Source of the DNA: Pseudonocardiaceae bacterium
GTDB taxonomy: Bacteria > Actinomycetota > Actinomycetes > Mycobacteriales > Pseudonocardiaceae
Length of the DNA: 64,000 nt
Assembly: GCA_036562635.1 (NCBI GenBank)
Contig: DATCJU010000094.1
Coordinates: forward strand, 11,758-75,757
Reading direction: 5' to 3'
The notes under the pieces are model-generated. The model was not told the origin of the DNA and did not search any database. It worked only from the letters and a program-made list of their open reading frames with translations. Position numbers and translations under genes: made by a program. Positions 1,434 through 48,787 of the stretch are shown piece after piece; the first letter of the stretch is position 1, and every line of letters begins with the position of its first letter.

Positions 1434-1461
1434 CCGGGGACAGGTCGGGAACGGGTGCCGG

Positions 1462-8541: not shown

Positions 8542-8745
8542 GCCGCCCCCACCCACAGGACTCACACCGGTCAACTCGGGGGCAGGTTAGGCAGCAGCAG
8601 CCACAGCCGCTGGTCAGGAGAAACACGCCCGGGCGAAGATCCGACGCAAACCACTCGGCGGAGGAAAACCCGGTCGGTGGCCGATGACACCGTGCTGCCG
8701 ACACGCCCAGGAGCAGGTGAACCGGGCCCGCCGGCCGGTGTTCAC

Positions 8746-13836: not shown

Positions 13837-13866
13837 CCGCGGGTGCCGGCCGGGTCGGCGACCCGC

Positions 13867-15135: not shown

Positions 15136-15146
15136 GGCAGGTCAGC

Positions 15147-15425: not shown

Positions 15426-15594
15426 CGTCCGGCACGCAGGTCACCGGGAACGGCGGCACCACCACGGGCACGGCGCACCCCGCGGTGACCGACGTCCGGT
15501 ACGTCCCGGTCCGGCCAGCGGACCGGCCACCCCGACCCCGGCGACGATGCGGTGGGCGGCGCGCCGGGGGCGGGTCGTGGCGCCCGGAGGTCGA

Positions 15595-16065: not shown

Positions 16066-16123
16066 TTACTGCCTCCTGTGTTCTGCGGGACACCCGCACC
16101 CAACCACAACGGACCAGGGCGGG

Positions 16124-17290
16124 TCACGACTGCGGGATGCGGTGGGGGACGAACGCGGCCCCGTCGTCGGTGACCAGACCGGCGGTCTCCCGGATACCGA
16201 GACCGGCCGACGCGTCCCCGACGATCCACGCCCCCAGCACCGGCCGCATTCCGTCGAACTCGGGCAGCGGCGCGAACAACTGGTAGACGTAGCCCTCCTG
16301 CCCGTAGACGCCGCCGGTCTCGTGCTGCATGCCCGGCGCGACGATCTGGATGTTCGCGCCCTCACGTCCCAGCTTGGGCTTGCGCACGTACTCGGTGAGC
16401 ATCCCGGGCTGGTCGAGGTAGGCGGGCAGCAGGTTGGGGTGGCCGGGGTACATCTCCCACAGCACCGCCAGCAGCGCCTTGTTGGACAGCAGCATCTTCC
16501 ACAGCGGCTCCACCCACAGGGTTTCCGGCAGGGACTCCACGGCGTACTTGCCGAACTGGTCCTCGACCATCCACTCCCAGGGGTAGAGCTTGAAGACCGT
16601 GCGCATCGGCGCCTCGGCCAGGTCCACGAAGCGGTTCAGTGCACTGTCCCAGCCGATCTCCTCGATCGGCAGGCCGATCGTGTCCAGCCCGGCCTCGGCC
16701 GCGGTCTCCTGCAGGTAGGCCACGGTGACGTGGTCCTCGCCGGTGGGGTCACCGGACGACCAGGTGAAGTGCACCTCGCCGGAGGGCAACCGCCCGGCGA
16801 TCTCGGTCCACCGCTCGACCAGCTTCTCGTGCAGCGAGTTCCACTGGTCGTCACCCTCGTGCACGTCGGTGAGCCAGTGCCACTGCACCACCGCCGCCTC
16901 CAGCAGCGAGGTGGGAGTGTCCGCGTTGTACTCCAGGAGCTTGGCCGGCCCCCTGCCGTCGTAGCGCAGGTCGAACCGGCCGTACACGTGCGGATCGCCG
17001 CGCCGCCACGACTCGGCGATCGCGGGCCACACCCACTCCGGTATGCCGAAGTCCCGGTACCGCTCGGCGGTGATCACGTGGTCCACCGCCTCCAGGCACA
17101 TGGAGTGCAGCAGCTCGACGTCGGCCTCCAGTGCGAGCACCTCGTCCAGGCTGAACACGTAGTGCACCGACTCGTCCCAGTAGGGACGGCGCACTCCGTT
17201 CGGTCCGACGGCCGGCGCCCCGAAGACCAGCCCCTGCTCGGCGATCCGACGCTGCCAGTCGGGACGGGGCTCCCCCACTTCCCGGTGCAC
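16124..17290 (-). CDS. glutathionylspermidine synthase family ATP-grasp protein (YjfC-like)
   Basis: YGRFDLRYDGRGPAKLLEYNADTPTSLLE and the downstream GSP_synth-type core. Start set at GTG 17290 (GGAG upstream). The ORF-track N-terminal extension overlaps the upstream gene. Confidence 0.85.
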   Translation of the reverse strand: MHREVGEPRPDWQRRIAEQGLVFGAPAVGPNGVRRPYWDESVHYVFSLDEVLALEADVELLHSMCLEAVDHVITAERYRDFGIPEWVWPAIAESWRRGDPHVYGRFDLRYDGRGPAKLLEYNADTPTSLLEAAVVQWHWLTDVHEGDDQWNSLHEKLVERWTEIAGRLPSGEVHFTWSSGDPTGEDHVTVAYLQETAAEAGLDTIGLPIEEIGWDSALNRFVDLAEAPMRTVFKLYPWEWMVEDQFGKYAVESLPETLWVEPLWKMLLSNKALLAVLWEMYPGHPNLLPAYLDQPGMLTEYVRKPKLGREGANIQIVAPGMQHETGGVYGQEGYVYQLFAPLPEFDGMRPVLGAWIVGDASAGLGIRETAGLVTDDGAAFVPHRIPQS

Positions 17291-34754: not shown

Positions 34755-35990
34755 CTACCCCCGCGCCTCGTACGGCTCGGCCGGACGCACGGTGCCGGTC
34801 ACCTCGGCGAACCCGACCACACTGCCGTCGGGGCCCGGCGCGGTGGCGGTGATGGTCACCGTGTCCCCGTCCTCCAGGAAGGTGCGCTCGCTGCCGTCAG
34901 CCAGCGTCACCGGTTCCCGGCCGCCCCAGGTCAGCTCCAGGAAGCAGCCGCGCTGTTCCTTCTCCGGTCCCGACACCGTGCCGGAGGCGAACAGGTCACC
35001 CGGGCGCACGGTGGCACCGTTGATCGTCATGTGCGCGAGCTGCTGGGCGCAGGACCAGGACATGGCGGCGAACGGCGGGTGGGCGACCACGGTGCCGTTC
35101 CACTCCACCGCCAGCTTCAGGTCCAGCCCCCACGGCTCCTCCTCGACCAGGTACGGCAGCAGCTCGTGGTCGAAGCCGGGCGTGGGCACCCGCGCCGCGG
35201 ACAGGGCCGCCAGGGGCGTGATCCAGGCGCCGATCGAGGTGAGGAACGACTTGCCCAGGAACGGACCCAGCGGCTGGTACTCCCAGGCCTGGATGTCCCG
35301 GGCCGACCAGTCGTTGACCAGGGCGACACCGAAGACGTGGTCAGCGACCTCGGAGGTGGTCACCCGGGAACGCACCGGACCGCCGCAGACGAACCCGACC
35401 TCGGCCTCGATGTCCAGGCGCCTGCTGGGACCGAACACCGGGGCGTCGGCGCCGGCCGGGCGGCTCTGCCCGCTGGGGCGGACCACGTCCGTGCCGGAGA
35501 CGACGACGGTGCCGGCGCGGCCGTGGTAACCGACCGGCAGGTGGGTCCAGTTGGGCAGCAGCGGGGCGCTGTCGGGGCGGAAGATCCGACCGACGTTCTC
35601 CGCGTGGTGCCGGGACGAGTAGAAGTCGACGTAGTCGGCGACGGTGAACGGCAGCACGGGCTGCACGGCGGACTCACCGGTCAGCGGCAGCAGCTGGGCG
35701 CCCCGGGGCGCCGTGTCCGCGGTGACCAGTGCGACCAACCGCTCCCGCAGCTCGTCCCAGGCGGGACGGCCGGCGGCCAGCAGCGGGTTCAGCGAGTCGG
35801 CGCTCACCAGGTCGGCGAGGCGCTCGCCGAGCTCCCCGGCGAGCGGGCGCAGCGGCAGCGCGTGGTCACCCACCCGCACGGCGAGGACGGGCCGGTCCCC
35901 GACCCCGGGCCCGGTGACCACACCGTAGGGCAGGGTCTGCGGGCCGAACGGACGGTCGGCGGCGAACTCGGGATCGTCGATCCAGGTCAC
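34755..35990 (-). CDS. fahA: fumarylacetoacetase
   Basis: N-terminal FGPQTLPYGVV, core HVFGVALVNDWSARDIQAWEYQPLGPFLGKSF and the C-terminal FAH fold. Start at GTG 35990, overlapping the upstream stop (GTGA). Confidence 0.92.
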   Translation of the reverse strand: MTWIDDPEFAADRPFGPQTLPYGVVTGPGVGDRPVLAVRVGDHALPLRPLAGELGERLADLVSADSLNPLLAAGRPAWDELRERLVALVTADTAPRGAQLLPLTGESAVQPVLPFTVADYVDFYSSRHHAENVGRIFRPDSAPLLPNWTHLPVGYHGRAGTVVVSGTDVVRPSGQSRPAGADAPVFGPSRRLDIEAEVGFVCGGPVRSRVTTSEVADHVFGVALVNDWSARDIQAWEYQPLGPFLGKSFLTSIGAWITPLAALSAARVPTPGFDHELLPYLVEEEPWGLDLKLAVEWNGTVVAHPPFAAMSWSCAQQLAHMTINGATVRPGDLFASGTVSGPEKEQRGCFLELTWGGREPVTLADGSERTFLEDGDTVTITATAPGPDGSVVGFAEVTGTVRPAEPYEARG

Positions 35991-36853
35991 AGCAACCCCA
36001 GTTCTTGCATGTCGGCGATGGGTTCGGACAGCGAGCAGGAGCCGTAGGAGGCGAACACGCCCCGCACGGCGTGTGCTGCCTCCTCGGACAGGGACTTGGC
36101 CTCGTCGGCGAGGGCGGCGGCGTCGGTGCACGCCAGCGCCTCACGAACGTCCCGCCCGCACAGGGCGCGGGCGGTGGCCACCAGCAGGTTCAGGAACCCG
36201 TGGTGGGTGCGCCCGGTCTCGGGGTTGACGTGCCGCACGGCGTGGTGCAGGCCGGCCGTGGCCTTGAACGGCACGCCGAGGGTGGAGGCCACGGCGAGGA
36301 AGTCGGCGACCTCGTCGACGCTGGGGAACGCCTCGTTGGTCAGGCCGCCGCAGCGGATCTTGGGCCAGCAGCCGTGCTCGGCCACCTTACGGACCCCGTC
36401 GAGCCACTCGGGGGCGCCACGCCGGGGTTCCACGACACGGATGACGTCCTCGGGGACGAACTCCGAGACCCGCTCCAGCCAGACGTCGTCCACGTCGGCG
36501 GAGGCGGGCATCTCGACCATCCGCAGGGACAGCAGCTCACTGCGGGACTCGACGATCGAGACGGCCTTGGGCACACCGCCCAGCCCGGTGTCGATCACGA
36601 GCGACAGCGCCACCGGCTTTGCCGGCTTGGCCTTGATCAGCTCGGCGATCAGGTCCGGGAGGCGGGAGGCGGGACACAGGAACAGGCCGACGAGCCCGGC
36701 GTGGGGGCCGGACCGAGCCTCCAGGTGCCCGCGGACCGCATCGGGCATCGTCGCGTTGCCCGGCGGGAACAACGCGGCGTCGTCGATGAGCCGGGCCAGG
36801 AGAGGCGGAATACCGCGCGGGCCGGGCGCGCGGAGTTCGATGGCGCTTGACAC
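35987..36853 (-). CDS. conserved hypothetical protein translationally coupled to fahA
   Basis: 288 aa with high GC3 from GTG 36853 onward; the first 19 codons of the ORF-track version have low GC3 and sit in the hmgA promoter region. No family recognised (KIRCGGLTNEAFPS, FKATAGLHHAVRH). Confidence 0.65.
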   Translation of the reverse strand: MSSAIELRAPGPRGIPPLLARLIDDAALFPPGNATMPDAVRGHLEARSGPHAGLVGLFLCPASRLPDLIAELIKAKPAKPVALSLVIDTGLGGVPKAVSIVESRSELLSLRMVEMPASADVDDVWLERVSEFVPEDVIRVVEPRRGAPEWLDGVRKVAEHGCWPKIRCGGLTNEAFPSVDEVADFLAVASTLGVPFKATAGLHHAVRHVNPETGRTHHGFLNLLVATARALCGRDVREALACTDAAALADEAKSLSEEAAHAVRGVFASYGSCSLSEPIADMQELGLL

Positions 36854-36922: not shown

Positions 36923-38119
36923 ATGCCGTACTACCGCCAAGTCGGCGAAATCCCACGTAAACGGCACACCCAGTTCCGCCGGCCGGACGGCGGCCTGTAC
37001 GCCGAAGAGCTGATGGGAGTCGAGGGCTTCTCCTCGGACTCCGCGCTGCTCTACCACCGGTACCTGCCCACGGCCATCGTCGACGCGGAGACCGTCGAGG
37101 ACACCGGGCGGGAGACCACCCCCAACCTCCCGCTCAAGCCGCGGCACTACCGGACCCAGGACCTCACGTGGGAGTCCCCCGGCGAGGTGGACGCCGTCAC
37201 CGGACGTCGTCTGCTGTTCGGCAACCCCGACGTCAAGATCTGTTTCGTCGCGGCCACCAGCCCCAGCCCGCTGTACCGGAACGCCTTCGGTGACGAACTG
37301 TTCTACGTGCAGACCGGCTCCGCCACCCTGGAGACGGTGTACGGCGCCCTGACCATCGGGGAGGGCGACTACGTCGTCATCCCCACCTCCACCACCTACC
37401 GGGTGGTTCCGGACACCGACCCGGGCGCCGAGCCGCTGCGCCTGCTCGTGCTGGAGGCCACCGGGCACATCGGCCCGCCGAAGCGTTACCTGTCGGCGCG
37501 CGGCCAGTTCCTGGAGCACTCCCCCTACTGCGAGCGCGACCTGCGCGCCCCCACCGAGCCGCTGCTGGTGGAGGGGGAGGACGTCCCGGTGCTGGTGCGG
37601 CACCGCAACGGACTCACCCGGTTCACCTACGCCCACCACCCGTTCGACGTGGTGGGTTGGGACGGCTGCCTGTACCCGTGGGCGTTCAACATCCGCGACT
37701 TCGAGCCCATCACCGGCCGGGTGCACCAGCCGCCGCCCGTGCACCAGACCTTCGAGGGCCCGAACTTCGTGGTCTGCTCGTTCTGCCCGCGCAAGGTGGA
37801 CTACCACCCGCAGGCCATCCCGGTGCCCTACAACCACGCCAACGTGGACTCCGACGAGCTGATGTTCTACGTCGGCGGGAACTACGAGGCCCGCAAGGGC
37901 TCCGGCATCGGCATCGGCTCGATGTCGCTGCACCCGTCCGGCTGCACCCACGGCCCGCAGCCCGGTGCGGTGGAGGCCTCGCTCGGCGTGGAGTACTTCG
38001 ACGAGACCGCGGTCATGGTGGACACCTTCCGACCGCTGGAACTCGGCGAGGCCGCGGCCGCCTGCGAGGACCCGCGCTACGCCTGGACCTGGGCCAGGCG
38101 CGGCCCGGACTGGAGCTGA
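36923..38119 (+). CDS. hmgA: homogentisate 1,2-dioxygenase
   Basis: MPYYRQVGEIPRKRHTQFR...GFSSDSALLYH and a C-terminal cupin with NHANVDSDELMFY...MSLHPSGCTHGP. Diverges from the fahA operon. Confidence 0.9.
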   Translation: MPYYRQVGEIPRKRHTQFRRPDGGLYAEELMGVEGFSSDSALLYHRYLPTAIVDAETVEDTGRETTPNLPLKPRHYRTQDLTWESPGEVDAVTGRRLLFGNPDVKICFVAATSPSPLYRNAFGDELFYVQTGSATLETVYGALTIGEGDYVVIPTSTTYRVVPDTDPGAEPLRLLVLEATGHIGPPKRYLSARGQFLEHSPYCERDLRAPTEPLLVEGEDVPVLVRHRNGLTRFTYAHHPFDVVGWDGCLYPWAFNIRDFEPITGRVHQPPPVHQTFEGPNFVVCSFCPRKVDYHPQAIPVPYNHANVDSDELMFYVGGNYEARKGSGIGIGSMSLHPSGCTHGPQPGAVEASLGVEYFDETAVMVDTFRPLELGEAAAACEDPRYAWTWARRGPDWS

Positions 38120-38261: not shown

Positions 38262-39107
38262 TCACCGTCCGACGGACGGCCCGGAATGAGAAGACCCGGA
38301 ATAAGAAGGAAGGAGCACCGGGTCCGTCAGGAACGCCCACGGCCCGGGCGCCGGCGGTGCGGCAGGTCGCTCCGCCGGCTCGGCACCCACCAGGACCGCG
38401 TAGGCCACGACGTTGTCCGTGTAGCTGCGGCGGGCCCGGTCGAAGCGACCCCCACAGGTGATCAGCCGCAGCCCGGCGTGATCGATCGCCCCGTACACCG
38501 CCTCGGTGGGGAACCGCTCCTTGGGATACCGCTCCACCGCGGTCACCCGGAACACCGCGGTGCTGCCGTCGGCCCGGACCACCCGCACCTCGGCGCCGGG
38601 GCGGAGGTGCCCCAGCCGGTGGAACACGCCCGGGCGGCCGGCCCAGTCGACGTGTCCGACGAGCACCGCCGGTCCCCACGCACCGGGCGGTGGCGCCCCG
38701 GTGTACCAGCCGACCTGCTCACCGCTGTCGGGCACCTCCACCGTGCCGTCCGGCTGCAACCCCAGCGCGACCGGTTCCGTGTCCACGCCGAGGGCCGGCA
38801 CGACCACCCGCACCGGAGGCACCGCCGGCAGTGCCGACCCGTCCCCCGACCCCGGGGGAACCACCCCGGTGGACACCACCTGCGCACCGGCGACCGGCAC
38901 CGGGTCCTCGACGCCGGGACGGATGCCGGCTCCGGCGGACCGGTCGAACGCGCCGCAGGTCAGCAGGGAGAACCCGAGCGCGACGACCACCGTCGCCGGC
39001 GCGGGCCCGGTTCGGTGACGACCGACCACGCGGCGACCGGCCGGACGACGACCACCGTGGGCGTGCCGCCTGCCGCCCCGGCGTCGACGGGCGTGCCGTC
39101 CAGCCAA
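38262..39107 (-). CDS. class F sortase
   Basis: VGWYTGAPPPGAWGPAVLVGHVD (His site) and LRLITCGGRFD (TxxTC-type Cys site). N-terminal Arg-rich segment plus a TM. Start tentatively TTG 39107, 4 nt after the upstream stop. Confidence 0.8.
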   Translation of the reverse strand: MAGRHARRRRGGRRHAHGGRRPAGRRVVGRHRTGPAPATVVVALGFSLLTCGAFDRSAGAGIRPGVEDPVPVAGAQVVSTGVVPPGSGDGSALPAVPPVRVVVPALGVDTEPVALGLQPDGTVEVPDSGEQVGWYTGAPPPGAWGPAVLVGHVDWAGRPGVFHRLGHLRPGAEVRVVRADGSTAVFRVTAVERYPKERFPTEAVYGAIDHAGLRLITCGGRFDRARRSYTDNVVAYAVLVGAEPAERPAAPPAPGPWAFLTDPVLLPSYSGSSHSGPSVGR

Positions 39108-39111
39108 CGGT

Positions 39112-39909
39112 TCACCCGTTCCGATGCCGCACCCGCCGCCGGGCGAGAACCGCACCGGCGAGCATCGCACCGCCCAGCACGGCCAGGGCGGGCGCCGGAC
39201 CGTCGGTGGAGCCCGCGGTGCTGCCGTCACCGGCCTCCACCGCACCCACCGGCACCGAGACCGGCCCCACCCCGGACAGCGCACCACAGGTCACCGGGTT
39301 GGTGGCCTCCTCGGGGACACCGGCCACGCCCAGGGCCTTGGCGAACGTCGACTCGCCGAGCGCCTCCAGGTCGTACCGACCGTTCCCGTTCGCGTCGATG
39401 CCGTGCTGCTCGACGACCAGGTTCCGCAGGTTCCGTTTGACCGCGGGAGGCAGCTCCGCGGCCGGGAAGGTCCGCTCGTAGTGCAGTTCGCCCTTCGCGT
39501 CGGCCTTGGGCATGCGGTCCAGGGCGAGGGCGCTCGCCGGGCCGGTGTCGCCGGTGGTGGTGAGCGAGAGAACCGCCGGGCCGTAGTAGGGCGCCCCCTC
39601 CTCCGCGGAGACGTACCCGTCGCGGTCGGCGTCCGCGGACCTGTCCGTGCAGACGAACCGACCCCGCTCCCCGCCGTGGAGGTGCTGGGCGTGCGGCACG
39701 TTCGGCAGCAGCCCGGTGGCGTGGATCGTGACGTGCAGGTCCCCCGCCTCGGTCACGGTCACCGTCGCGACACCTCCGGCGCCGGTGCCGTTGATGTCCC
39801 CGAGCCGGACGTGGAAGTTCTGCTGGGGTTCCTCAGCCGCCGCGGGGGCCGCCAGGAGCAGCAGCAACGCGGCGGAGACGATCAGCGGTCCTCGTGTCCT
39901 CGTCCTCAT
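39112..39909 (-). CDS. secreted CHRD-like protein with EF-hand-like loops and a C-terminal TM/Arg tail (putative sortase F substrate)
   Basis: Signal peptide (LIVSAALLLLLAAPAAAEE). CHRD-like GGVATVTV...LHVTIHATGL...HAQHLHGG. DADRDGYVSAEE fits the 12-residue EF-hand loop. C-terminus G/S/T-rich, then ALAVLGGAMLAGAVLA-RRRVRHR. Confidence 0.6.
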   Translation of the reverse strand: MRTRTRGPLIVSAALLLLLAAPAAAEEPQQNFHVRLGDINGTGAGGVATVTVTEAGDLHVTIHATGLLPNVPHAQHLHGGERGRFVCTDRSADADRDGYVSAEEGAPYYGPAVLSLTTTGDTGPASALALDRMPKADAKGELHYERTFPAAELPPAVKRNLRNLVVEQHGIDANGNGRYDLEALGESTFAKALGVAGVPEEATNPVTCGALSGVGPVSVPVGAVEAGDGSTAGSTDGPAPALAVLGGAMLAGAVLARRRVRHRNG

Positions 39910-40241
39910 CTACCGGGTCCTCCCGTCGTGTCGGCACCCGCCCCGTCACCGGAGCCGGCCGGTCCTCCCGGTGGCTCCGCCGGCGGGCGGCTCCCGGTTT
40001 GCCCCGGTACCCCACCCCCAACCGCCGTCCGGTCCGGTTCGCCCCGGCCGGGACGGTGGAACCGCCGGTCGCGGGCCCCTTCACGGCACGCTGCGCACAC
40101 CCTCGTTCCTCCCGCCGGGCGTATCCGCCTCGTCCGGACTCCCCTGGACCGAGTGACCCGTACCGAGCAGCAGTGATCGGTTTCTGTCGGTGGTGATCCC
40201 TAACGTGCGAGGCGCCTGGTGACGGAGAGGAGACGGGCACG

Positions 40242-41582
40242 GTGGACGTGCAGGCGGTGCTGAGCCTGGCCCCGGACGCACAGGTCGCGTCGAGCGGCAG
40301 CAAGTTGGCCAACCCCGCCAAGTGGTCCGGTTCGGGCCACGACGGGCAGGCCCTGTGGGGGCTGTGCGCGGGCAGCGGCAAGAAGCCCTACCAGGTGTGC
40401 GTCGACCTGAGCGACCGGGTCAGCAAGTGCTCCTGCCCGTCCCGCAAGTTCCCCTGCAAGCACGCGGTGGCACTGCAGCTGCTGCACGTCACCGGCTCCG
40501 TTCCCGGCCCGGAGGGCGCCGAGCGCCCGGAGTGGGCCGAGGAGTGGCTGCGCCGGCGGCAGCAGCGGAGGAACACCCGGAGCGCGTCCTCCGACGAGTC
40601 CCCGGAGGACCGGCAGCGACGAGCCGCCCAGCGGGCCCGCACCGCCAGGGCCCGGCAGCAGAAGGTGCTGGCCGGGGTGGCGACCCTGCGCGACTGGCTG
40701 ACCGACATCGCCACCGCCGGGATCGCCGAGCTCGGCGAGCGGGACGCGTCCTGGTGGCGCACCGCGTCCGCCCGCATGGTGGACGCCCAGGCCCCCGGTC
40801 TGGCCTCCGCGATCGAGGAGCTGCACCAGGTGGTCTCCGCCGGTGGTGACCGGTGGACGGAGGAGGCCGCGGACCGACTGGGCGGGCTGCACCTGCTCGC
40901 CGTGCTCGCCCCGGCCGCCCTGGGGGAGGACGGGAACGCGGCGACGCTGCCGGCCGGGTTGGCCGACACGGTGCGGTCCCGGCTCGGGCTCACCACCTCC
41001 GAGGACGAGGTGCGGGCCGGGGAGGGCTGGTCCGACCGGTGGCTGGTGCTGCTGCGCCGGGACAGCAGCGCCGGGCGGGTGCAGACCGTGCAGCAGTGGG
41101 CATGGGGCCGGGAGCGCCGGGAGTGGGTGACCGCGGTGCGGCACGCCGGGGGTGGTGCCCTTCCGGCCCCGCCCCTGCCGCCGGGGACGGAACTGACCGC
41201 GGTGGTCCACCCCTACCCCGGGGGTGCTCCGCGCCGGGTGCTGCTCGGCGAGGTCACCGAGCAGCGTCCGGTGCACGACCTGGACCTGCCCGCCACGTGG
41301 TCGGAGGCGCTGGCCGGCCTGGAGCCGCTGCTGTGCGCCGACCCGTGGCAGCGGGTGCACCCGCTGGGCAGCGCGGCGGTGCGTGTCGCCCGCGCCGGGA
41401 ACGAGTTCGTGCTGCTGGACCGGACCGACAGGTCGATCCCGGTACGGGCGGACACCGCGCTGGAGCGGGCCCTGGCGGTCTCCGGGGGTGCGGAGTTCGG
41501 CGCGGTGGGGCTGTGGGACGGCCGGGAGCTGCGGCTGGGTGCGATCACCCGGCCCGGCGGCGAGGTGGAGTTGGTGGCATGA
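40242..41582 (+). CDS. SWIM zinc finger family protein
   Basis: CSCPSRKFPCKHAVAL equals the SWIM CxCx(n)CxH motif. GTG start after GGAGAGGAG. First gene of the five-gene operon. Confidence 0.85.
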   Translation: MDVQAVLSLAPDAQVASSGSKLANPAKWSGSGHDGQALWGLCAGSGKKPYQVCVDLSDRVSKCSCPSRKFPCKHAVALQLLHVTGSVPGPEGAERPEWAEEWLRRRQQRRNTRSASSDESPEDRQRRAAQRARTARARQQKVLAGVATLRDWLTDIATAGIAELGERDASWWRTASARMVDAQAPGLASAIEELHQVVSAGGDRWTEEAADRLGGLHLLAVLAPAALGEDGNAATLPAGLADTVRSRLGLTTSEDEVRAGEGWSDRWLVLLRRDSSAGRVQTVQQWAWGRERREWVTAVRHAGGGALPAPPLPPGTELTAVVHPYPGGAPRRVLLGEVTEQRPVHDLDLPATWSEALAGLEPLLCADPWQRVHPLGSAAVRVARAGNEFVLLDRTDRSIPVRADTALERALAVSGGAEFGAVGLWDGRELRLGAITRPGGEVELVA

Positions 41583-43042
41583 CGACGTTCGAGAGCTCCT
41601 CCGTGACGGAGGCGACCCCCCAGGCGTGGCAGGAGACGGTGCGCCGCCTGCTCGCCGGCGGTGGCCGGGCCGGCACGGATCCGGCCGCACTGCTGGACAA
41701 CTGTGCCGCGCTCGGAACGGCCCGCCGCGGTGCCCGGCTGCCCGACGCGGCCGGGACGGCGGTACCGGTGTCGCCCGCCCCGTCCGACCCGCGGCCCGAA
41801 GGGTCCGAGCGCCTGGCCGGCCTGCTCACCCGGATGCTGGCCGGCGGGGACAAGGACCTGATCACCGAGTGGTGCCGGTCGGTGGCGGACGCCGGTCTGA
41901 CCGCTCCGTACTGCTGCCTGCCCGACCTGCTGGCCTACGGCACCGGGCGGTCCGGGATGCGCCCGGCGATCCACGAGGTGCTGGGTGCGCGGGGACGCTG
42001 GCTGGCCGCGATGCGCCCGGCCTGGTCCTGGGCCGGACACGACCAGAGCGCGTGGGAGGACCAGGACCTGGAGGCGCTGCTGGACGCACCGGCCCCGGTG
42101 CGTCTGGCGGGGCTGCGCCGGGCCCGCCGGCGCGACCCGGACGGCACCCGGGAGTTCCTGGCCGCGCAGTACGCGGCGCAACGTCGGGCCGCGGACCGCA
42201 GGGTGCTGGTCGAGGCCCTGGAGGAGGGTCTGGGCCCGGCGGACGAGCCCCTGCTGGAACGGATGCTGCGTGACCGCGCCGTCGAGGTGCACGACGCCGC
42301 GGTCCAGCTGCTGCGTCGACTGCCCGGTTCGGCGCTGTCCCGGCGGGCCGCCGAACGGCTACGTGCCGGAGTCGTCCTGGTCGACGGGGTCCTGGAGGTA
42401 CGCCCCGACGGGCCGTTCGGCACCGAGCCGACCGAGGAGGAACGGCTCGACCTGCTGTGGGAGGGGGGCGGCGGGCGTGGCCGCTGGGGTCGGCTGCACG
42501 GTGCCGCGGCCAGCGTGCCACCCGAGTTCTGGACGGAGCTGCTCGACCTCGACGTCCAGAGCGCGATCGAGGTGGTGGCCGAGACACCCGAGTTCCTGCA
42601 CGGGCTGGTCGCGGCGCTGCCGCAGGCCGCGGACCCGGTCCCCTGGCTGGTCGCCGCGCTTCGGACCTGGGGCACCGGCAGCAACGCCCTGCGCGTGTCG
42701 TACCGGATGAGCGACCTGCCCGTCGAACAGGCCGAACGCGCCCTGTTCGAGCTGCTGCCAGACTGCGAACACGACCTGATCGCCCACGTGTGCGAGTACC
42801 TGCCCACACCGTGGTCGGCGGCGATGACCGCCGCGCTGGTGGAGCGCTACATGGCGCTGGAGGACCCCGAGTGGCGGCAGAACCAGGTGCCCGACCTGCT
42901 GGTCCACCGGGGTGACGTGGACGTCCTGGTCCAGGCGTGGCCCCGGATCACCGCCCGCTGGCCCGAGCACGCCACCGAGACCGGAGTGCTGGAGCTGCGG
43001 GTCGCACTCCGGGACGCGATCCGCGAGCACCGAACCGTCTGA
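41579..43042 (+). CDS. DUF5691-like helical-repeat protein
   Basis: 487 aa, Leu/Ala/Arg-rich helical (HEAT-like). ATG 41579 overlaps the SWIM stop (ATGA). DUF5691 assignment is from memory of the conserved SWIM-DUF5691-AAA-DUF5682-VWA gene order. Confidence 0.65.
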   Translation: MTTFESSSVTEATPQAWQETVRRLLAGGGRAGTDPAALLDNCAALGTARRGARLPDAAGTAVPVSPAPSDPRPEGSERLAGLLTRMLAGGDKDLITEWCRSVADAGLTAPYCCLPDLLAYGTGRSGMRPAIHEVLGARGRWLAAMRPAWSWAGHDQSAWEDQDLEALLDAPAPVRLAGLRRARRRDPDGTREFLAAQYAAQRRAADRRVLVEALEEGLGPADEPLLERMLRDRAVEVHDAAVQLLRRLPGSALSRRAAERLRAGVVLVDGVLEVRPDGPFGTEPTEEERLDLLWEGGGGRGRWGRLHGAAASVPPEFWTELLDLDVQSAIEVVAETPEFLHGLVAALPQAADPVPWLVAALRTWGTGSNALRVSYRMSDLPVEQAERALFELLPDCEHDLIAHVCEYLPTPWSAAMTAALVERYMALEDPEWRQNQVPDLLVHRGDVDVLVQAWPRITARWPEHATETGVLELRVALRDAIREHRTV

Positions 43043-43149
43043 CCGGTCCGGCACGGAACCGAGCATCACGTCGCCCGCCCCGGCGGCGTTCCGACACCAC
43101 ATCCGCGCGCCGTGGACGCGCGCGTTCCACGACGAGGAGGACACACCCC

Positions 43150-44265
43150 GTGAGCACCCAGAACGGCATGCTGCGCCCGCCCGCCGAGGAGCAGTACGCC
43201 GCCGAGCTGGCCGCGCTGGCCGCGATCGACGACCGGCCCCGTCCGCCGCGCTGGCGGCTGTCCCCGCAGGCCGTGGTCCGGTACGTGCTGGGCGACACCC
43301 TGCCGGACGGCACGGTGATCACCCCCAAGTACGTCGGTGACCGGCGGCTGGTGGAGGTGGCGGTGAGCACCCTGGCCACCGACCGGGCACTGCTGCTGGT
43401 CGGGGTGCCGGGTACCGCCAAGTCGTGGCTGTCCGAGCACCTGGCCGCCGCGATCAGCGGGGACTCCACCCTCGTGGTGCAGGGCACCGCGGGCACCGGG
43501 GAGGACGCGGTCCGCTACGGCTGGAACTACGCCCAGCTCATCGCCCAGGGTCCCAGTGAGGACGCGGTAGTGCCCAGCCCGGTGATGCGTGCGATGCGCA
43601 CGGGTGCGCTGGTCCGCATCGAGGAGCTGACCCGGATGCCGGCCGAGGTGCAGGACTCGCTGATCACGATCCTGTCCGAGAAGACGCTGCCGGTGCCCGA
43701 GCTGAACAGCCAGGTCCGGGCGGTGCCGGGTTTCAACGTGATCGCCACCGCCAACGACCGGGACCGCGGGGTCAACCAGATGTCCTCGGCGCTGGCCCGC
43801 CGGTTCAACACCGTGGTGCTGCCGCCACCGGCCACCGAGGACGACGAGGTGGAGATCGTGTCCATGCGGGCCGCCCAGCTGGGCCGGGCGCTGGAGCTGC
43901 CCGCCGAGCCGCCCGCCCTGGAGGAGGTGCGCCGGGTGGTCCGGGTCTTCCGCGAGCTGCGCCAGGGGTCCACTGTGGACGGTCGCACCCAGCTCAAGCG
44001 TCCCAGCGGCAGCCTGTCCACCGCGGAGGCGATCTCGGTGGTGACCAACGGGATGGCGCTGGCCGCGCACTTCGGCGACGGCCGGATCGGGGCGGACGAG
44101 CTGGCCGCGGGGCTGCTCGGCGCCGTGGTCAAGGACCGGGTGTCGGACACCGCCGCGTGGCAGGAGTACCTGGAGACCGTGGTCCGGGAGCGCACCGAGT
44201 GGCGTGACCTGTACCGAGCCTGCCGGGAGCTGGACGCCTCGGCCTTCGCCGCGGACGGGGTGTGA
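43150..44265 (+). CDS. MoxR-class AAA+ ATPase (AAA_5 type)
   Basis: Walker A LLLVGVPGTAKS, Walker B-like GALVRIEELTRMP, sensor/Arg-finger region FNVIATANDRDRGVNQMSSALARRF. GTG 43150 after GAGGAGGA. Confidence 0.88.
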   Translation: MSTQNGMLRPPAEEQYAAELAALAAIDDRPRPPRWRLSPQAVVRYVLGDTLPDGTVITPKYVGDRRLVEVAVSTLATDRALLLVGVPGTAKSWLSEHLAAAISGDSTLVVQGTAGTGEDAVRYGWNYAQLIAQGPSEDAVVPSPVMRAMRTGALVRIEELTRMPAEVQDSLITILSEKTLPVPELNSQVRAVPGFNVIATANDRDRGVNQMSSALARRFNTVVLPPPATEDDEVEIVSMRAAQLGRALELPAEPPALEEVRRVVRVFRELRQGSTVDGRTQLKRPSGSLSTAEAISVVTNGMALAAHFGDGRIGADELAAGLLGAVVKDRVSDTAAWQEYLETVVRERTEWRDLYRACRELDASAFAADGV

Positions 44266-46538
44266 TGGCCCGGACGCGACAGCTGCCCGAGCGGGTGACC
44301 CTGCTCGGGGTCCGGCACCACGGTCCCGGCTCGGCCCGGATGGTGGAGACCGCGCTGCGGGCGCTGCAACCGGACCTGGTGCTGGTGGAGGGACCACCCG
44401 AGGCGGATCCGCTGGTGGCGCACGTCGGCGAACTGACCCCGCCGGTGGCGCTGCTGCTGCACGACGAGTCCGAACCGGCACGTGCGGCGTTCTGGCCGTT
44501 CGCCCGGTTCTCCCCGGAGTGGCGGGCGCTGTGCTGGGCGGCGGAACACCGGGTTCCGGTGCGGTTCGTCGACCTGCCCGCGGCGGTGTTCCTGGCCGAG
44601 CCGGACGAGCCGGCCGGCTCCGGTGACGGGGCACCCACGGAACCCGCCGCGGAGGGGGAGGCGGCGGTGTCCGAGGACCGGCGGGTGCGGGTCGACCCGC
44701 TCGGGGTGCTCGCCGAGGCCGCCGGGTTCGACGACCCGGAGCGCTGGTGGGAGGACGTGGTCGAGCACCGGCTCGCCGGGGACCCGGTCAAGCTCGCCGA
44801 GGCGGTCGCCGAGGCGATGACCGCGCTGCGCGAGGAGTACGCGGCCGCCGTCGACGAGCGCACGCTGCGTCGCGAGGCGGCGATGCGGCAGGCGCTGCGG
44901 GCCGCGCTGCGGGAGGTGTCGGGCCGGATCGTGGTGGTGTGCGGGGCGTGGCACGTCCCCGCGCTGCGGGAACTACCGCCCGCCACCGAGGACACCGCCC
45001 TGCTGCGTGGGCTGCCCCGGCGGAAGGTGTCCGGGAGTTGGGTGCCGTGGAGCCACGGCCGGCTGGCCGCCGCTTCCGGGTACGGGGCCGGCGTGGCCTC
45101 CCCCGGCTGGTACGCGCACCTGTGGGAGCACGCCGGGGCCGGGGACGCGGTCCCGCGGTGGGTGGCCCGGACCTGCCAGGTGCTGCGTGAGGAAGGGCTG
45201 CAGGCGTCCACGGCCAGTGCCGTGGAGGCGGTGCGGCTGGCCGACGCGCTGGCCGCGGTGCGGGGCCGTCCCGCGCCCGGGCTCAGCGAGGTGATGGACG
45301 CGACCCTGGCTGTGCTGTGCGGCGGGGACGACGTGCCGCTGCGGCTGGTGCACCAGCGGCTGGTGGTCGGCGAGGAGCTGGGCGCGGTCGGTGCCGGGGT
45401 TCCCCGCTCCCCGCTGGCGGTCGACCTGGAGCGGTGGCAGCGCACGCTGCGACTGCGCCCGAAGGCGACCGAACAGCAGCTCCGACTGGACTTGCGCAAG
45501 GACACCGACCGGGAACGGTCCCGGCTGCTGCGGCGGCTCCGGGTGCTGGGGGTGCCCTGGGGGGTGCCGGAGACCACGCGCAGCCTGGGCACGTTCGCCG
45601 AGGCCTGGCGGCTGTGCTGGGAGCCGGAGCTGGCGGTGGCGGTGGCCGAGGCGGCGCGGCACGGCACCACGGTGGCGGGAGCCGCTGAGCAGGTGCTGCG
45701 GCTGCGGGCGGCCGAGGCCGGGCAGGTCGCGGAGGCCGCCGAGGTGCTGCACGCCGCGGTGGGCTGCGAACTGCCGGACGCGGTGACCGCGGCCCGGGCC
45801 GCCCTGGACCGGTGTGCGGCGGCGGCCACCGACGCGGTCGAGCTGCTGGCCGCGCTGCCCGAGCTGGCCGCGACGGTGCGCTACGGCTCGGTGCGGGACA
45901 GCGATCCGGAGCTGCTGCGTACCGCCCTGCACGGTCTGCTGGCCCGTGGTGCGGCCGGGTTGTCGCTGGCCTGCCGGAACGTGGACGACGACACCGCGGA
46001 ACGGGTGCTGCGGGTACTGGACGAGGCACACGAGGCGGTGGGGCTGGCCGCGGACGCCGAGCACACCGCCGCGTGGCGGGAGGCGCTGCTGCACCTGGTG
46101 CACACCGAGAACGCCCACCCGCTGCCGGTGGGTCGGGCCACCCGGCTGTTGTGGGAGGGCGGTGACCTGGACACCGAGGCGGTGGCGGTGCGGTTGCACC
46201 GGGCGGTGTCCGGGGACGTGACGCGGGCGACCGCGTTCGTGTCGGGCTTCCTGCGCGGTTCGGCCGCGTTGCTGGCTGCGGACCAGCGGTTGTTGTCGCT
46301 GGTGGACGCGTGGCTGACCGGGCTGTCGGCGGAGGCGTTCGCGGACGCGCTGCCCCTGCTGCGCCGGGCGGTCGCCCACTTCAGCCCGGCCGAGCGGCGC
46401 ACGATCGCCGAGCGGTTGGGGGCACCGGGCACCGCGGAGCTGCGGCGGCACGGAGCGGTCGAGACCGGGTGGGACGTCGAGCGGGCCGGGCGGCTGGCCG
46501 GGTTCGTGCGGGGATTGCTGGCGGAGGTGGGCCGATGA
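44262..46538 (+). CDS. DUF5682-like large protein of unknown function
   Basis: 758 aa. Start overlaps the AAA+ stop (GTGATG). The N-terminus VTLLGVRHHGPGSARMVETALRALQPDLVLVEGP is characteristic of the family as I recall it. The rest is helical and Ala/Leu/Arg-rich. Confidence 0.65.
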   Translation: MMARTRQLPERVTLLGVRHHGPGSARMVETALRALQPDLVLVEGPPEADPLVAHVGELTPPVALLLHDESEPARAAFWPFARFSPEWRALCWAAEHRVPVRFVDLPAAVFLAEPDEPAGSGDGAPTEPAAEGEAAVSEDRRVRVDPLGVLAEAAGFDDPERWWEDVVEHRLAGDPVKLAEAVAEAMTALREEYAAAVDERTLRREAAMRQALRAALREVSGRIVVVCGAWHVPALRELPPATEDTALLRGLPRRKVSGSWVPWSHGRLAAASGYGAGVASPGWYAHLWEHAGAGDAVPRWVARTCQVLREEGLQASTASAVEAVRLADALAAVRGRPAPGLSEVMDATLAVLCGGDDVPLRLVHQRLVVGEELGAVGAGVPRSPLAVDLERWQRTLRLRPKATEQQLRLDLRKDTDRERSRLLRRLRVLGVPWGVPETTRSLGTFAEAWRLCWEPELAVAVAEAARHGTTVAGAAEQVLRLRAAEAGQVAEAAEVLHAAVGCELPDAVTAARAALDRCAAAATDAVELLAALPELAATVRYGSVRDSDPELLRTALHGLLARGAAGLSLACRNVDDDTAERVLRVLDEAHEAVGLAADAEHTAAWREALLHLVHTENAHPLPVGRATRLLWEGGDLDTEAVAVRLHRAVSGDVTRATAFVSGFLRGSAALLAADQRLLSLVDAWLTGLSAEAFADALPLLRRAVAHFSPAERRTIAERLGAPGTAELRRHGAVETGWDVERAGRLAGFVRGLLAEVGR

Positions 46539-47719
46539 GCGGGGAGCACGCGACGGGTACGGCGGTCGACCCGGCGGAGCGGCTGCGGCGCTGGCGACTG
46601 CTGCTGGGTCCGGCGGCCGGGGAGCTGTGCCAGCTCGACGCGGACGACGCGCGGCGGGACGCGGCGTTGACCGCACTGTACGGCGGGGGTGACGGCAAGG
46701 GCGGTCGCGGTGCCGGACTGGGAGGGAGCGCCCCGGTGCTGCACCGCTGGCTGGGGGACATCCGCACCTACTTCCCCAGCTCCGTGGTGCGGGTGATGCA
46801 GCAGGACGCGGTGGAGCGGTTGGGGCTGACCAAGCTGCTGCTGGAGCCGGAGCTGCTGTCCGGTGTGGAGCCGGACGTGCGGCTGGCCGCCACGCTGGTG
46901 TCGCTGTCCCGGGCGATTCCCGAGCGCACCCGGGAGACCGCCCGTGCCGTGGTGCGCAAGGTGGTCGAGGAGGTGGAGCGCCGCCTGGCCGAACGGGTGG
47001 TGTCCGCGGTGACCGGTGCGGTGGACCGCTCCCGCCGCACCCGGCGCCCTCGACTGTCCGATGTGGACTGGGACGCGACCATCCGGGCCAACCTGCGGCA
47101 CTACCAGCCCGAGCAGCGCACCGTGGTGGTGGAGAAGCTCATCGGCCACCAGCGGCGCAGCCGGGTCGGCGCGCTCAAGGACGTGGTGCTGCTGGTGGAC
47201 CAGTCGGGGTCGATGGCCGAGTCGGTGGTGTACTCGGCGATCTTCGGTGCGACCCTGGCCTCGATCCGTGCGGTGTCCACCCGGCTGGTGGTGTTCGACA
47301 CCGAGGTGGTGGACCTGACCGAGGAGCTGGCCGATCCGGTGGATCTGCTGTTCTCCACCCAGCTCGGTGGGGGTACCGACATCAACCGGGCGGTGGCCTA
47401 CGGCCAGAGCCTGGTGCGGCGGCCCACGGACACGGTGATGGTGCTGATCAGCGACCTGTACGAGGGCGGGGTGGCCGCCGAGTTGAAGCGCCGGGTGCAG
47501 GAGCTGGTGGCAAGCGGGGTGATGGTGGTGGTGCTGCTGGCGCTGTCGGACAGCGGGACACCGTCCTACGACCACCAGCTGGCGGCGGAGTTGTCCGCGC
47601 TGGGTGCCCCGTCGTTCGCCTGCACGCCGGATCTGTTCCCCGATCTGCTGGCCACGGCGCTGCGCCGGGAGGACGTGGGAGCCTGGGCCGAGGGAGCCGG
47701 GATGGCCGTGGGCCGCTGA
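46535..47719 (+). CDS. VWA domain-containing protein (CoxE-like)
   Basis: Intact MIDAS: VVLLVDQSGSM (DxSxS), a downstream T, and GGGTD. ATG 46535 overlaps the upstream stop (ATGA). Confidence 0.88.
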   Translation: MSGEHATGTAVDPAERLRRWRLLLGPAAGELCQLDADDARRDAALTALYGGGDGKGGRGAGLGGSAPVLHRWLGDIRTYFPSSVVRVMQQDAVERLGLTKLLLEPELLSGVEPDVRLAATLVSLSRAIPERTRETARAVVRKVVEEVERRLAERVVSAVTGAVDRSRRTRRPRLSDVDWDATIRANLRHYQPEQRTVVVEKLIGHQRRSRVGALKDVVLLVDQSGSMAESVVYSAIFGATLASIRAVSTRLVVFDTEVVDLTEELADPVDLLFSTQLGGGTDINRAVAYGQSLVRRPTDTVMVLISDLYEGGVAAELKRRVQELVASGVMVVVLLALSDSGTPSYDHQLAAELSALGAPSFACTPDLFPDLLATALRREDVGAWAEGAGMAVGR

Positions 47720-47731
47720 CCGGGGAGGGGT

Positions 47732-47772
47732 GGTGTGCCCGCCCGCACAGGGGGGAGGCGGGCGGGCACACC
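47732..47772 (+). terminator. strong stem-loop terminator (15-bp perfect stem GGTGTGCCCGCCCGC / GCGGGCGGGCACACC)
   Basis: Starts 13 nt after the VWA stop, with an 11-nt loop. Closes the five-gene operon. Confidence 0.7.
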
Positions 47773-47968
47773 GGACCGGTCGGCACCGGGGCCACGCCGA
47801 GCGTCGGGGCCGGGTGGCCGCGCCGCGCGGGTACCGCCGGGCCCGGGCGGGCCGGCGTGCCGGGACGAACCGGGGACCACGGGAGACGGAACCGGTCCCC
47901 GATGCGCGATTCGCCTTCCGCCGGGTCGCTCTTTCAGGTTAGGCTCACCTAAGTTGGAGGTGAGTCAG

Positions 47969-48787
47969 GTGCCGACGAACTCCTCGCGACCTCAGGTTCC
48001 CCGTCCCGCCGAACGCGCCCGGTCGCTGGCCGCCCGCCCCGGACACGCCGCGCTGCTGCCCTCCGTACCCCCCGACGTCCTGCCCCACGGCATGCCGGTG
48101 TCGCACACCGAGACCGTGCGGGTCCGTCCGCTGCTGCACCACGTCCACGCCGACGGCACCGCCACCGTCCTGCTTCCCGACGACCACCCGCTGGTCGCCG
48201 CCATCCACCTGGCCCCGCGCGGCCAGCACCCCACCGTGCTGGAACTGGCCGACCCCGCGCCGGTGCGGCTGCGCGAGCCGATCCGCGGTCTGCTCTGGCT
48301 CACCGGCTGGCTGCACGTCCCCGACCCCGCCGAGCAGCGGACCGCCGCCCTGGCCGTCGCCGAGGAGCGGGCCGACCCACGGCTCCTCGACGTGGGACAC
48401 GGCGCCACCCTGTTGCGCCTGACCCCGGTGTCGCTGGTGCTGGCCGACGCCGAAGGCACCGCGGCCCTGACCCCCGACGAGTTCGCCGGCGCCGACCCCG
48501 ACCCGTTCTGCCGGGTCGCCGACCACTGGCTGCGCCACCTGGAGTACGGCCACCCCGACGTGATGGGCCGACTGGCCCGGCACCTGCCGGACCGGCTGCG
48601 CGGCGGCCACATCCGCCCGCTGGGCCTGGACCGGATGGGGCTGCGACTCCGGGTGGAGGCCGCGGACGGCGACCACGACGTGCGCCTGGCGTTCTCCCGC
48701 CCGGTGCACAGCGCCGACGAGCTGACCGGCGAACTGCGCAGGCTGCTCGGCTGCCCCTTCCTGGCCGCGGCCGGGCGACGCGACTGA
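47969..48787 (+). CDS. DUF2470 domain-containing protein (heme-utilisation/HugZ-related fold)
   Basis: GTG 47969 after GGAGG. The C-terminal segment (HLEYGHPDVMGRLARHLP...GLDRMGLRLRV...DVRLAF...ELRRLL) resembles DUF2470 proteins. Assignment from memory. Confidence 0.5.
   Translation: MPTNSSRPQVPRPAERARSLAARPGHAALLPSVPPDVLPHGMPVSHTETVRVRPLLHHVHADGTATVLLPDDHPLVAAIHLAPRGQHPTVLELADPAPVRLREPIRGLLWLTGWLHVPDPAEQRTAALAVAEERADPRLLDVGHGATLLRLTPVSLVLADAEGTAALTPDEFAGADPDPFCRVADHWLRHLEYGHPDVMGRLARHLPDRLRGGHIRPLGLDRMGLRLRVEAADGDHDVRLAFSRPVHSADELTGELRRLLGCPFLAAAGRRD

Follow-up and report, generated by a model that had tools for sequence, protein, structure and literature searches.

What does a MoxR-class AAA+ ATPase do when it is encoded together with a von Willebrand factor A (VWA) protein and three further proteins to which no function has been assigned? 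The question is raised by a 64,000-nucleotide stretch of a Pseudonocardiaceae genome (assembly GCA_036562635.1, contig DATCJU010000094.1, positions 11,758 to 75,757; hereafter the window), in which five open reading frames (ORFs), all on the plus strand, fill positions 40242-47719. MoxR-VWA pairs form a major, poorly understood class of bacterial remodelling ATPases. We describe here that the locus is an ordinary, complete member of the YehL-subfamily MoxR-VWA cluster, that the cluster is a self-contained, cytoplasmic, chromosomally inherited module of five proteins found in at least 10 phyla, and that one of the five, DUF5682, very probably carries an N-terminal domain of the TraB/TIKI superfamily. 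A preliminary description of this DNA had listed five co-directional genes of named families, and the ORFs and Pfam matches agree with that list; the expect (E) values are 1.7e-5 for SWIM, 2.8e-75 for DUF5691, 5.8e-37 for AAA_5, 2.7e-241 for DUF5682 and 2.8e-53 for VWA_CoxE. The genes, and the two parts of the DUF5682 protein, are as follows.

40242..41582, plus strand: SWIM zinc-finger protein, 446 aa (Pfam SWIM)
41579..43042, plus strand: DUF5691 protein, 487 aa, helical, with HEAT repeats (Pfam DUF5691)
43150..44265, plus strand: MoxR-class AAA+ ATPase of the YehL subfamily, 371 aa (Pfam AAA_5, YehL homology)
44262-46538, plus strand: DUF5682 protein, 758 aa, whole gene (Pfam DUF5682)
44262..45077, plus strand: N-terminal alpha/beta domain of DUF5682, residues 1-272, a putative TraB/TIKI-type hydrolase or metal-binding domain
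45099..46538, plus strand: C-terminal region of DUF5682, residues about 280-758, an ARM/HEAT-like alpha-solenoid
46535..47719, plus strand: CoxE-type VWA protein, 394 aa (Pfam VWA_CoxE)

Five families form one module across bacterial phyla

One genome per GTDB species was scanned with a DUF5682 profile, which gave at least 596 loci, and the best 80 were kept. Six-frame ORFs of the 80 loci were searched with the five window proteins and then with hidden Markov models (HMMs) of the families; 67 loci had enough flanking sequence. All five families were present in 63 of the 67, and 48 had them in the window order on one strand. The loci represent at least 10 phyla (Actinomycetota, Cyanobacteriota, Bacteroidota, Chloroflexota, Pseudomonadota, Planctomycetota, Acidobacteriota, Methylomirabilota, Myxococcota and Deinococcota), with Obscuribacterales and Sericytochromatia among the Cyanobacteriota, and the DUF5682 family as a whole comprises at least 7,930 sequence clusters. 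The five families are therefore syntenic in other genomes, and the earlier proposal that the genes make up one coupled, widely conserved unit is borne out.

An all-versus-all comparison of the flanking ORFs of the 80 loci revealed no further family in more than 13 loci, and the recurring ones were confined to related genomes. Because all five families occur together in 63 of the 67 loci and no other neighbour is conserved, the module is self-contained; the preliminary description had seen no client gene next to it in the window, and none adjoins it in a conserved manner elsewhere. A sixth conserved gene or a next-door client was considered and rejected, since DUF4132 occurred in only five loci and in E. 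coli, and no other family recurred beyond sets of related genomes. The five loci are from Bacteroidota (L023, L036, L041, L060 and L075), and in each a DUF4132 protein of about 980-1210 aa is encoded directly after the VWA gene (at about 13400-16400). One of the two Bacteroidota DUF4132 proteins that were scanned also has HEAT repeats. The DUF4132 protein seems to be an optional sixth component, one that the 64-kb window lacks.

Departures from the common arrangement were informative about the internal structure of the module. In nine loci, mostly from Streptomyces, the SWIM-DUF5691 pair is divergent from AAA-DUF5682-VWA. Furthermore, a single 952-aa ORF of Phytohabitans maris (locus L076, NZ_JAVHUY010000018.1, 6098-8953) joins SWIM and DUF5691 in frame, the former corresponding to residues 13-408 and the latter to residues 474-908, and the metagenomic protein P0017 is a DUF5682-VWA fusion. 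The divergent loci and the fusions point to two sub-modules, and the window fits this division, given that its gene overlaps lie inside each sub-module and its sole gap lies between DUF5691 and AAA+. In Lentzea (L004, L007, L008, L009 and L012), the VWA gene is located about 7-8 kb upstream of DUF5682 on the opposite strand (about 900-2800, minus strand), so the operon can split without losing any part. The DUF5682 gene was found without its four partners in two loci, within about 10 kb on each side in L015 and with only about 2 kb of downstream sequence in L068.

Between the AAA+ and DUF5682 genes of two cyanobacterial metagenome-assembled genomes (L014 9304-9882 and L026 9128-9706) there is a gene for a Uma2-family putative restriction endonuclease (PF05685, E about 1e-34). 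The Uma2 family is expanded in cyanobacteria, and we judged the gene to be probably an incidental insertion and not a part of the module.

The N-terminal domain of DUF5682 resembles TraB/TIKI proteins

The 758-aa DUF5682 protein had been described as lacking any recognisable catalytic family. We revise this view, as structure matches, a profile comparison and invariant residues indicate that its N-terminal domain is most likely of the TraB/TIKI type. The Pfam DUF5682 model spans residues 28-753 of the window protein, whose closest homologues, at about 70% identity, are from Kutzneria, Saccharothrix and Actinosynnema. The search of Pfam at E 10 returned only the protein's own family, and the DUF5682 profile retrieved only noise (E of at least 0.16) from the PDB sequences. 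An alignment of 11 sequences, including E. coli YehM, contains the invariant motifs GxRHH, VEGP, FSPEW, DLP, REAxM and CGxWH, a pattern that resembles the TIKI/TraB signature.

AlphaFold2 modelling of the full-length protein (predicted local distance difference test, pLDDT, 89) gave an alpha/beta N-domain (residues 1-272) followed by an all-helical remainder with a small alpha/beta insert at about residues 384-451. When the full-length model was compared with the PDB by Foldseek, the matches were transportin-3, importin-beta, Kap121 and VPS35 (E 0.01-0.2, probability up to 0.96), which identify the helical part as an alpha-solenoid. The search was swamped by this C-terminal solenoid, with transportins and designed repeat proteins among the matches, and was uninformative for the N-domain, which was therefore modelled alone (pLDDT 80). 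The top three PDB matches of the N-domain were one and the same subunit of the Tetrahymena complex IV (7w5z_E/8b6h_DQ; E 0.057-0.11, probability up to 0.72), and the next match had an E value above 2. The Tetrahymena chain has 383-384 residues, and COXTT5 (385 aa), annotated as a 'TraB family protein', is the sole subunit of complex IV that fits this length (PMC10060162 and its supplement). Its identity rests on chain length and the subunit table of that paper, because a TraB/GumN profile failed to retrieve the chain. Among the viral predicted structures of BFVD, the top match was a 'TraB family protein [Marseillevirus]' (E 5.1e-4, probability 1.00). The template modelling (TM) scores of the structural matches were low, about 0.3, and the structural evidence is accordingly of moderate strength.

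The same relationship emerged from profile-profile alignment. Comparison by hhalign of the N-domain with YbaP alone, or with a low-diversity YbaP alignment in which all homologues were at least 59% identical, paired the correct motifs without reaching significance (P 0.065-0.083), and a diverse TraB/GumN profile was therefore needed. The profile contained 92 diverse representatives of less than 50% mutual identity and was compared with 82 DUF5682 N-domains. The score of 29.4-33.7 (P 0.0015-0.0004, probability 17-36%) is under the usual cut-offs and tops every control, namely five unrelated family pairs (at most 22.6), a reversed profile (18.2) and 30 column shuffles (at most 19.8). The alignment is colinear: both GxxH motifs face their counterparts, and between them a strand-end Glu is paired with Glu and R-E with R-N; the spacings between motifs are 24 and 27 residues in DUF5682 and 26 and 24 in TraB.

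Residues G16, H19, E43, E86, D104, R204, E205, G228 and H231 of DUF5682 are invariant in all 82 sequences, and the invariants of TraB/GumN are H41, E67, E159, R228, G249 and H252. The candidate site comprises H19, E43, E86, D104, R204-E205 and H231; in the AlphaFold2 model, H19, E43, D104 and H231 each directly follow a predicted beta-strand. The hallmarks of the TIKI fold are a parallel beta-sheet core, a site of two His and two Glu, and a conserved basic residue (PMC6254334). Beside the putative site of DUF5682 there is a disordered insert at about residues 105-144 (window 44562-44690), which varies from 14 to 82 residues among the homologues and is net acidic in 71 of 82. Four independent lines thus converge, none of them decisive alone, and we regard membership of the N-domain in the TraB/TIKI superfamily as very probable. 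With this assignment, DUF5682 itself becomes the probable enzyme or client of the locus, and the putative site of invariant His, Glu and Arg gives a protein of 'function unknown' a direct experimental handle.

Relation to the E. coli yeh cluster and the distribution of the module

The preliminary description had called the locus yehLMPQ-like. This is exact only for L, M and P: by BLASTP, the AAA+ protein shares 44% identity with full-length YehL (E 6e-85, 365 aligned columns), DUF5682 is 26% identical to YehM over its full length (E 1e-36), and the VWA protein is 41% identical to YehP (E 1e-85). YehQ (614 aa) and the window SWIM protein (446 aa) both match the Pfam SWIM model, but they align only over the finger of about 20 residues (BLASTP E 0.65; hhalign P 0.096, 24 columns), and kinship beyond the finger was ruled out on this result. 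No counterpart of DUF5691 was found among YehQ, YehI (DUF4132), YehK and YehF (WGR), BLASTP being negative and the hhalign P at least 0.096. The E. coli cluster has the order AAA+, DUF5682, VWA as in the window and also includes a SWIM protein, although yehQ lies downstream. Unlike the window, it has upstream WGR and DUF4132/HEAT genes (yehF, the pseudogene yehH, yehI and yehK) and no DUF5691; yehI (DUF4132; L001 10280-13909) lies upstream of yehL. Within yehP (L001 17968-19104), FSscan predicted a +1 frameshift-prone site, and a frameshift product of yehP-egfp was seen by mass spectrometry (PMC2790909).

We found no functional study of the cluster in the literature searched, in which DUF5682, DUF5691, PF18934 and PF18944 are not mentioned by any paper; the yeh genes are named only in lists, an H-NS study, a deletion table and the frameshift-prediction paper. 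The earlier suggestion of a widely conserved but unstudied machine therefore stands as far as published function is concerned, but the cluster has not gone wholly unnoticed, since one of the seven recognised MoxR subfamilies bears the name of YehL, although no function is assigned to it there (PMC3893208). NCBIfam holds no specific model for any of the five proteins, and DUF5682 is unmatched there. The real unit of the YehL subfamily is the five-protein module, whose strong conservation extends from actinomycetes through cyanobacteria and Bacteroidota to E. coli.

One could envision that the module serves in conflict with phages or other invaders, the MoxR-vWA pair acting as a threshold switch that licenses a TIKI-like protease effector (compare RRSP and HopBA1) once the SWIM and HEAT proteins have sensed an invader. 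MoxR-vWA pairs have been exapted as switches in several conflict systems (PMC7159879), and there are toxins within the TIKI superfamily (PMC6254334). The window AAA+ protein matches the bpMoxR model weakly (E 9e-5), yet its 22.1 bits fall short of the gathering score of 27, and yehL, yehM and DUF4132 all go unmentioned in the survey of MoxR-vWA conflict systems (PMC7159879). Neither a VMAP, iSTAND or beta-propeller third component nor a variable effector is present, and PADLOC matched just one of the five proteins, weakly and through its SWIM finger (E 6.6e-4). In K-12, yehL and yehM are bound and silenced by H-NS and are derepressed in an hns/stpA mutant (PMC3686432), and the genes are dispensable; the yeh region has been lost in some lineages of Shigella sonnei (PMC12795559). 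The phyletic distribution is patchy, with many matches from filamentous or large-genome taxa. These features would suit a conflict system, but within E. coli the cluster is near-core: as a single chromosomal copy, yehLMPQ is covered to at least 80% in 5210 of 5426 complete genomes (96%). Of 72,556 plasmid records, only 28 carry a DUF5682 gene (24 of these records are non-mobilizable), and phages essentially lack it. The genes around the cluster are of the housekeeping kind and show no conserved association with defence, and the AAA+ and VWA proteins evolve slowly, retaining 41-44% identity between E. coli and the actinomycete across phyla instead of diversifying. Membership in a known defence system was rejected on the PADLOC and distribution data, and a role in conflict is in our view unlikely.

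The SWIM and DUF5691 proteins

The SWIM protein consists of an N-terminal SWIM module, a basic low-complexity linker, a helical region and a C-terminal domain without known fold. Its finger, C63-x-C65-x6-C72-x-H74, lies inside CSCPSRKFPCKH, a stretch that shows no variation among 18 sequences drawn from many phyla, in keeping with the CxCx(n)CxH finger reported from the first inspection of the sequence. The Pfam SWIM match of the window protein exceeds the curated cut-off, and the model is matched by all 18 family members scanned, in none of which Pfam revealed a second domain. No relative of the protein was found in the PDB by sequence, and its C-terminal two thirds matched nothing in Pfam or the PDB.

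The 487-aa protein had been described as a helical-repeat protein, and its family bears this out. HEAT_2 matched 9 of 13 DUF5691 family members (best E 1e-6), and the DUF5691 profile retrieved alphaRep/HEAT repeat proteins from the PDB (best E 4e-4). Judged by these matches, DUF5691 carries PBS-type HEAT repeats.

The AAA+ ATPase and the VWA protein

The preliminary description had reported an intact MoxR and VWA pair, and alignment places all of the relevant motifs at their canonical positions. In the AAA+ protein, Walker A is GVPGTAKS (G85-S92, with K91), Walker B is I157-E158-E159, sensor 1 corresponds to N202 and the arginine finger to R217/R218. Walker B has Glu in place of Asp at its first acidic position, a substitution (E-E versus D-E) that is also found in E. 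coli YehL and in at least 85% of 73 homologues. The motifs as a set are conserved in at least 85% of the same 73 and line up with the AAA modules of midasin and with NorQ positions. In the VWA protein, the metal ion-dependent adhesion site (MIDAS) is intact (D222-Q-S224-G-S226, T256 and T281-D282) and conserved in at least 85% of 73 homologues. The Pfam VWA_CoxE match spans residues 151-367 and is preceded by a conserved N-terminal region of about 150 aa; a four-helix N-terminal domain has been reported for CoxE-type vWA proteins (PMC7159879).

The closest solved relatives of the AAA+ protein are the AAA modules of midasin (E 1.8e-17), followed by NorQ (E 6.6e-6). This invites an alternative in which the module is a split bacterial midasin/Rea1, its AAA_5 ring and MIDAS-bearing VWA protein jointly removing or reshaping a factor bound to a ribonucleoprotein or nucleoid complex, with the two HEAT/ARM solenoids as scaffold. 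The intact MIDAS is consistent with it, the SWIM finger (joined in E. coli by the WGR/DUF4132 proteins) would supply a nucleic-acid contact, SWIM or WGR genes adjoin the core genes, and high conservation across phyla would suit a universal target. The similarity to midasin is generic, however, since all MoxR/AAA_5 proteins resemble midasin modules, and nucleic-acid binding is suggested by domain type only. Moreover, no ribosome or RNA gene was linked in the loci survey; the cluster is non-essential, silenced in K-12 (PMC3686432) and lost in some Shigella lineages (PMC12795559); and a midasin-like role leaves the invariant TraB-like site unexplained. We therefore consider this reading very unlikely.

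A second alternative takes its cue from the class I chelatases. The layout of an AAA+ protein, a large protein and a VWA protein is that of BchI-D-H and CobS-T-N (textbook), and by this analogy DUF5682 would be the large, non-hydrolytic substrate-binding subunit of a device that inserts a metal or cofactor; it would present a metal or a tetrapyrrole-like ligand, and the final client would be encoded elsewhere. The VWA protein belongs to the CoxE type, and CoxD and CoxE are involved in inserting a metal cluster (PMC7159879); the TIKI superfamily includes the haem-binding ChaN (PMC6254334); and the invariant His, Glu and Asp of DUF5682 would also fit a metal site. The VWA protein further matches an NCBIfam model of a cobaltochelatase subunit (E 4.5e-5), but the match covers the VWA domain only and scores 22 against a cut-off of 779 bits. 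DUF5682 itself matches neither CobN/BchH nor any other chelatase model, no tetrapyrrole, molybdenum cofactor or metalloenzyme gene is conserved near the 80 loci, and the retained combination of an Arg and two GxxH motifs is the pattern of the catalytic TIKI members. Chelatase-like insertion thus appears improbable.

A proposed mechanism

By alignment, the ATPase and MIDAS motifs are intact and the putative active site of DUF5682 is invariant; the genes fall into two sub-modules. The AAA+/VWA pairs of the NorQ-NorD, CbbQ-CbbO, CoxD-CoxE and BchI-BchD-BchH systems act on a partner enzyme, either by remodelling it or by supplying it with a metal, and it is by analogy with these pairs and the class I chelatases that we picture the AAA+ and VWA proteins acting on DUF5682. 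We propose, with slightly less than even confidence, that the MoxR-VWA pair activates DUF5682, a TraB/TIKI-type hydrolase, and that the SWIM/HEAT module targets it. In the sub-module of AAA+, DUF5682 and VWA, the enzyme would be DUF5682, its TraB/TIKI domain (a His/Glu hydrolase or metal site) being carried on the ARM/HEAT-like solenoid. The MoxR hexamer, brought in by the MIDAS of the VWA protein, would use ATP to switch this domain on, either by metal loading or by remodelling of the site, for example by extracting an autoinhibitory element, possibly the acidic loop. The SWIM and HEAT-repeat DUF5691 proteins of the other sub-module might form a joint targeting or sensing module that conveys a signal to the solenoid or delivers a substrate to it. 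Together with the WGR domains in E. coli, the SWIM finger hints at a nucleic acid or nucleoprotein as that substrate or signal. The net activity would be the ATP-gated cleavage or processing of a broadly conserved cellular substrate.

Several considerations weigh against this proposal. At the level of the domain assignment, each single TraB test falls short of the usual thresholds: the Pfam TraB model (PF01963) does not match DUF5682 even at E 10, the best PDB match of the N-domain has an E value of 0.057 and a TM score of 0.32, and the search by sequence with the TraB/GumN profile did not retrieve the Tetrahymena chain. The invariant residues are only presumed to cluster into one site. The fold is no proof of hydrolysis, because the TIKI superfamily includes non-enzymes such as ChaN and PMT C1/C2 (PMC6254334). 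At the level of the mechanism, the scheme is drawn by analogy. That DUF5682 is the target of the AAA+/VWA pair is suggested by gene order and one fusion, the roles of the SWIM and DUF5691 proteins are deduced purely from their domain types, and it is a guess that the acidic loop could be a MIDAS ligand, a pseudo-substrate or an autoinhibitory element.

In a wider and more doubtful form of the proposal, the YehL-type module would be an unrecognised class of ATP-regulated hydrolytic machine, in which a MoxR ring and a MIDAS adaptor gate a cytoplasmic TraB/TIKI protease carried on an alpha-solenoid and a SWIM/HEAT receptor picks the substrate. If this is true, at least 10 phyla, E. coli included, would possess a parallel to Clp, Lon, FtsH and the proteasome that is built from unrelated parts. 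Confirmation of the mechanism would, in addition, assign a role to the DUF5682 and DUF5691 families.

Organization of the locus

The junctions and flanks of the operon contain three further elements.

40225..40232, plus strand: Shine-Dalgarno-like GAGAGGAG, 5' of the GTG start of the SWIM gene at 40242 (sequence reading)
43134..43140, plus strand: Shine-Dalgarno GAGGAGG, 9 nt before the AAA+ start codon, inside the 107-nt gap
47732..47772, plus strand: GC-rich hairpin with a perfect 15-bp stem, beginning 13 nt past the last stop codon

Three of the four junctions overlap, as had been noted. The SWIM stop and DUF5691 start share GCATGACG at 41579-41582 (ATGA), the AAA+ and DUF5682 genes overlap in GTGTGATGG at 44262-44267 (GTGATG), and the DUF5682 stop overlaps the VWA start in CGATGAGC at 46535-46538 (ATGA). 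The only non-overlapping junction is that between DUF5691 and AAA+, where 107 nt separate the stop at 43042 from the GTG start at 43150. Although the AAA+ ORF is open from 42937, the gene itself begins with the GTG at 43150, which lines up with residue 1 of E. coli YehL; this corrects the preliminary description. The N-terminus of the SWIM protein likewise lines up with homologues of other phyla. No transmembrane-like segments were found in any of the five proteins, which is the basis for placing them in the cytoplasm.

The perfect 15-bp stem-loop that had been described after the last stop was recovered at 47732-47772. Folding of the surrounding segment (47715-47800) gave -59.1 kcal/mol (z = -4.1), which was matched by none of 200 shuffles. 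The hairpin is probably a transcription terminator or an RNA-stabilising element; termination can only be suggested, because the sequence contains no U-tract after it. An ORF with a DUF2470 domain (window 47735-48787) overlaps the hairpin, so its true start is probably further downstream.

The DUF2470 gene and an upstream sortase gene (38262-39287, minus strand) had both been named as neighbours and were found, but the CHRD gene named with them was not. The other downstream neighbours encode an Rce1-like protease and an arginine deiminase. Further upstream are genes for an FAA-hydrolase-like protein (34755-36131, minus strand) and a homogentisate 1,2-dioxygenase-like protein (36923-38116, plus strand), which look like part of an aromatic amino-acid catabolic cluster unrelated to the operon. 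The GC content of the window is about 72%. Over the operon (window 40001-48000), all four 2-kb bins have a positive GC skew (+0.03 to +0.155); elsewhere in the window the skew is mostly near zero or negative.

Comparison with known systems

As a standard member of a catalogued, uncharacterised cluster type, the locus itself is not new, and its interest lies in how the cluster differs from the systems that it resembles. Like NorQ-NorD, CbbQ-CbbO, CoxD-CoxE and RavA-ViaA, it has genes for a MoxR AAA+ protein and a VWA/MIDAS protein in one cluster; NorQ is a detectable sequence relative of its ATPase, and its VWA protein is of the CoxE type. The clients of the characterised pairs (nitric oxide reductase, Rubisco, CO dehydrogenase and, for RavA-ViaA, Nuo/Frd) are encoded nearby or elsewhere. 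Here, in contrast, the constant partners are only DUF5682, SWIM and DUF5691, the DUF5682 gene is placed between those for AAA+ and VWA, and Walker B is E-E instead of D-E.

With the TIKI/TraB/PrgY/GumN proteins (PF01963; Tiki, RRSP, erythromycin esterases and ChaN), the DUF5682 N-domain shares the predicted alpha/beta fold, two GxxH motifs, acidic residues that follow beta-strands and never vary, and an equally invariant Arg, which lies in the helix preceding the second GxxH. It differs from them in its acidic disordered insert of 14-82 residues, its fusion to a solenoid of about 480 residues and its failure to match the Pfam TraB model. Unlike Tiki and TraB/PrgY, which act outside the membrane, DUF5682 is cytoplasmic. 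We met no record in the literature of a TIKI member paired with an AAA+/VWA system, although no systematic search was made; if confirmed, this would be to our knowledge the first AAA+/MIDAS system linked to a TIKI-type enzyme.

The ternary MoxR-vWA conflict systems share with the cluster the MoxR and vWA core, additional large proteins, and a CoxE-like vWA with an N-terminal helical region (PMC7159879). They are set apart from it by their bpMoxR, for which the window protein is below threshold, by their VMAP, iSTAND or propeller components and by their variable effectors; the cluster, moreover, is not in PADLOC and is near-core in E. coli. The class I chelatases (BchI-BchD-BchH and CobS-CobT-CobN) share the AAA+ protein, the VWA/MIDAS protein and a large third subunit that bears the active site. 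Unlike the chelatases, the module has no BchH/CobN homology in DUF5682 and no linked tetrapyrrole genes, and it has SWIM and DUF5691 as two additional, obligatory proteins. Compared with every characterised MoxR-VWA system, the locus is a distinct variant.

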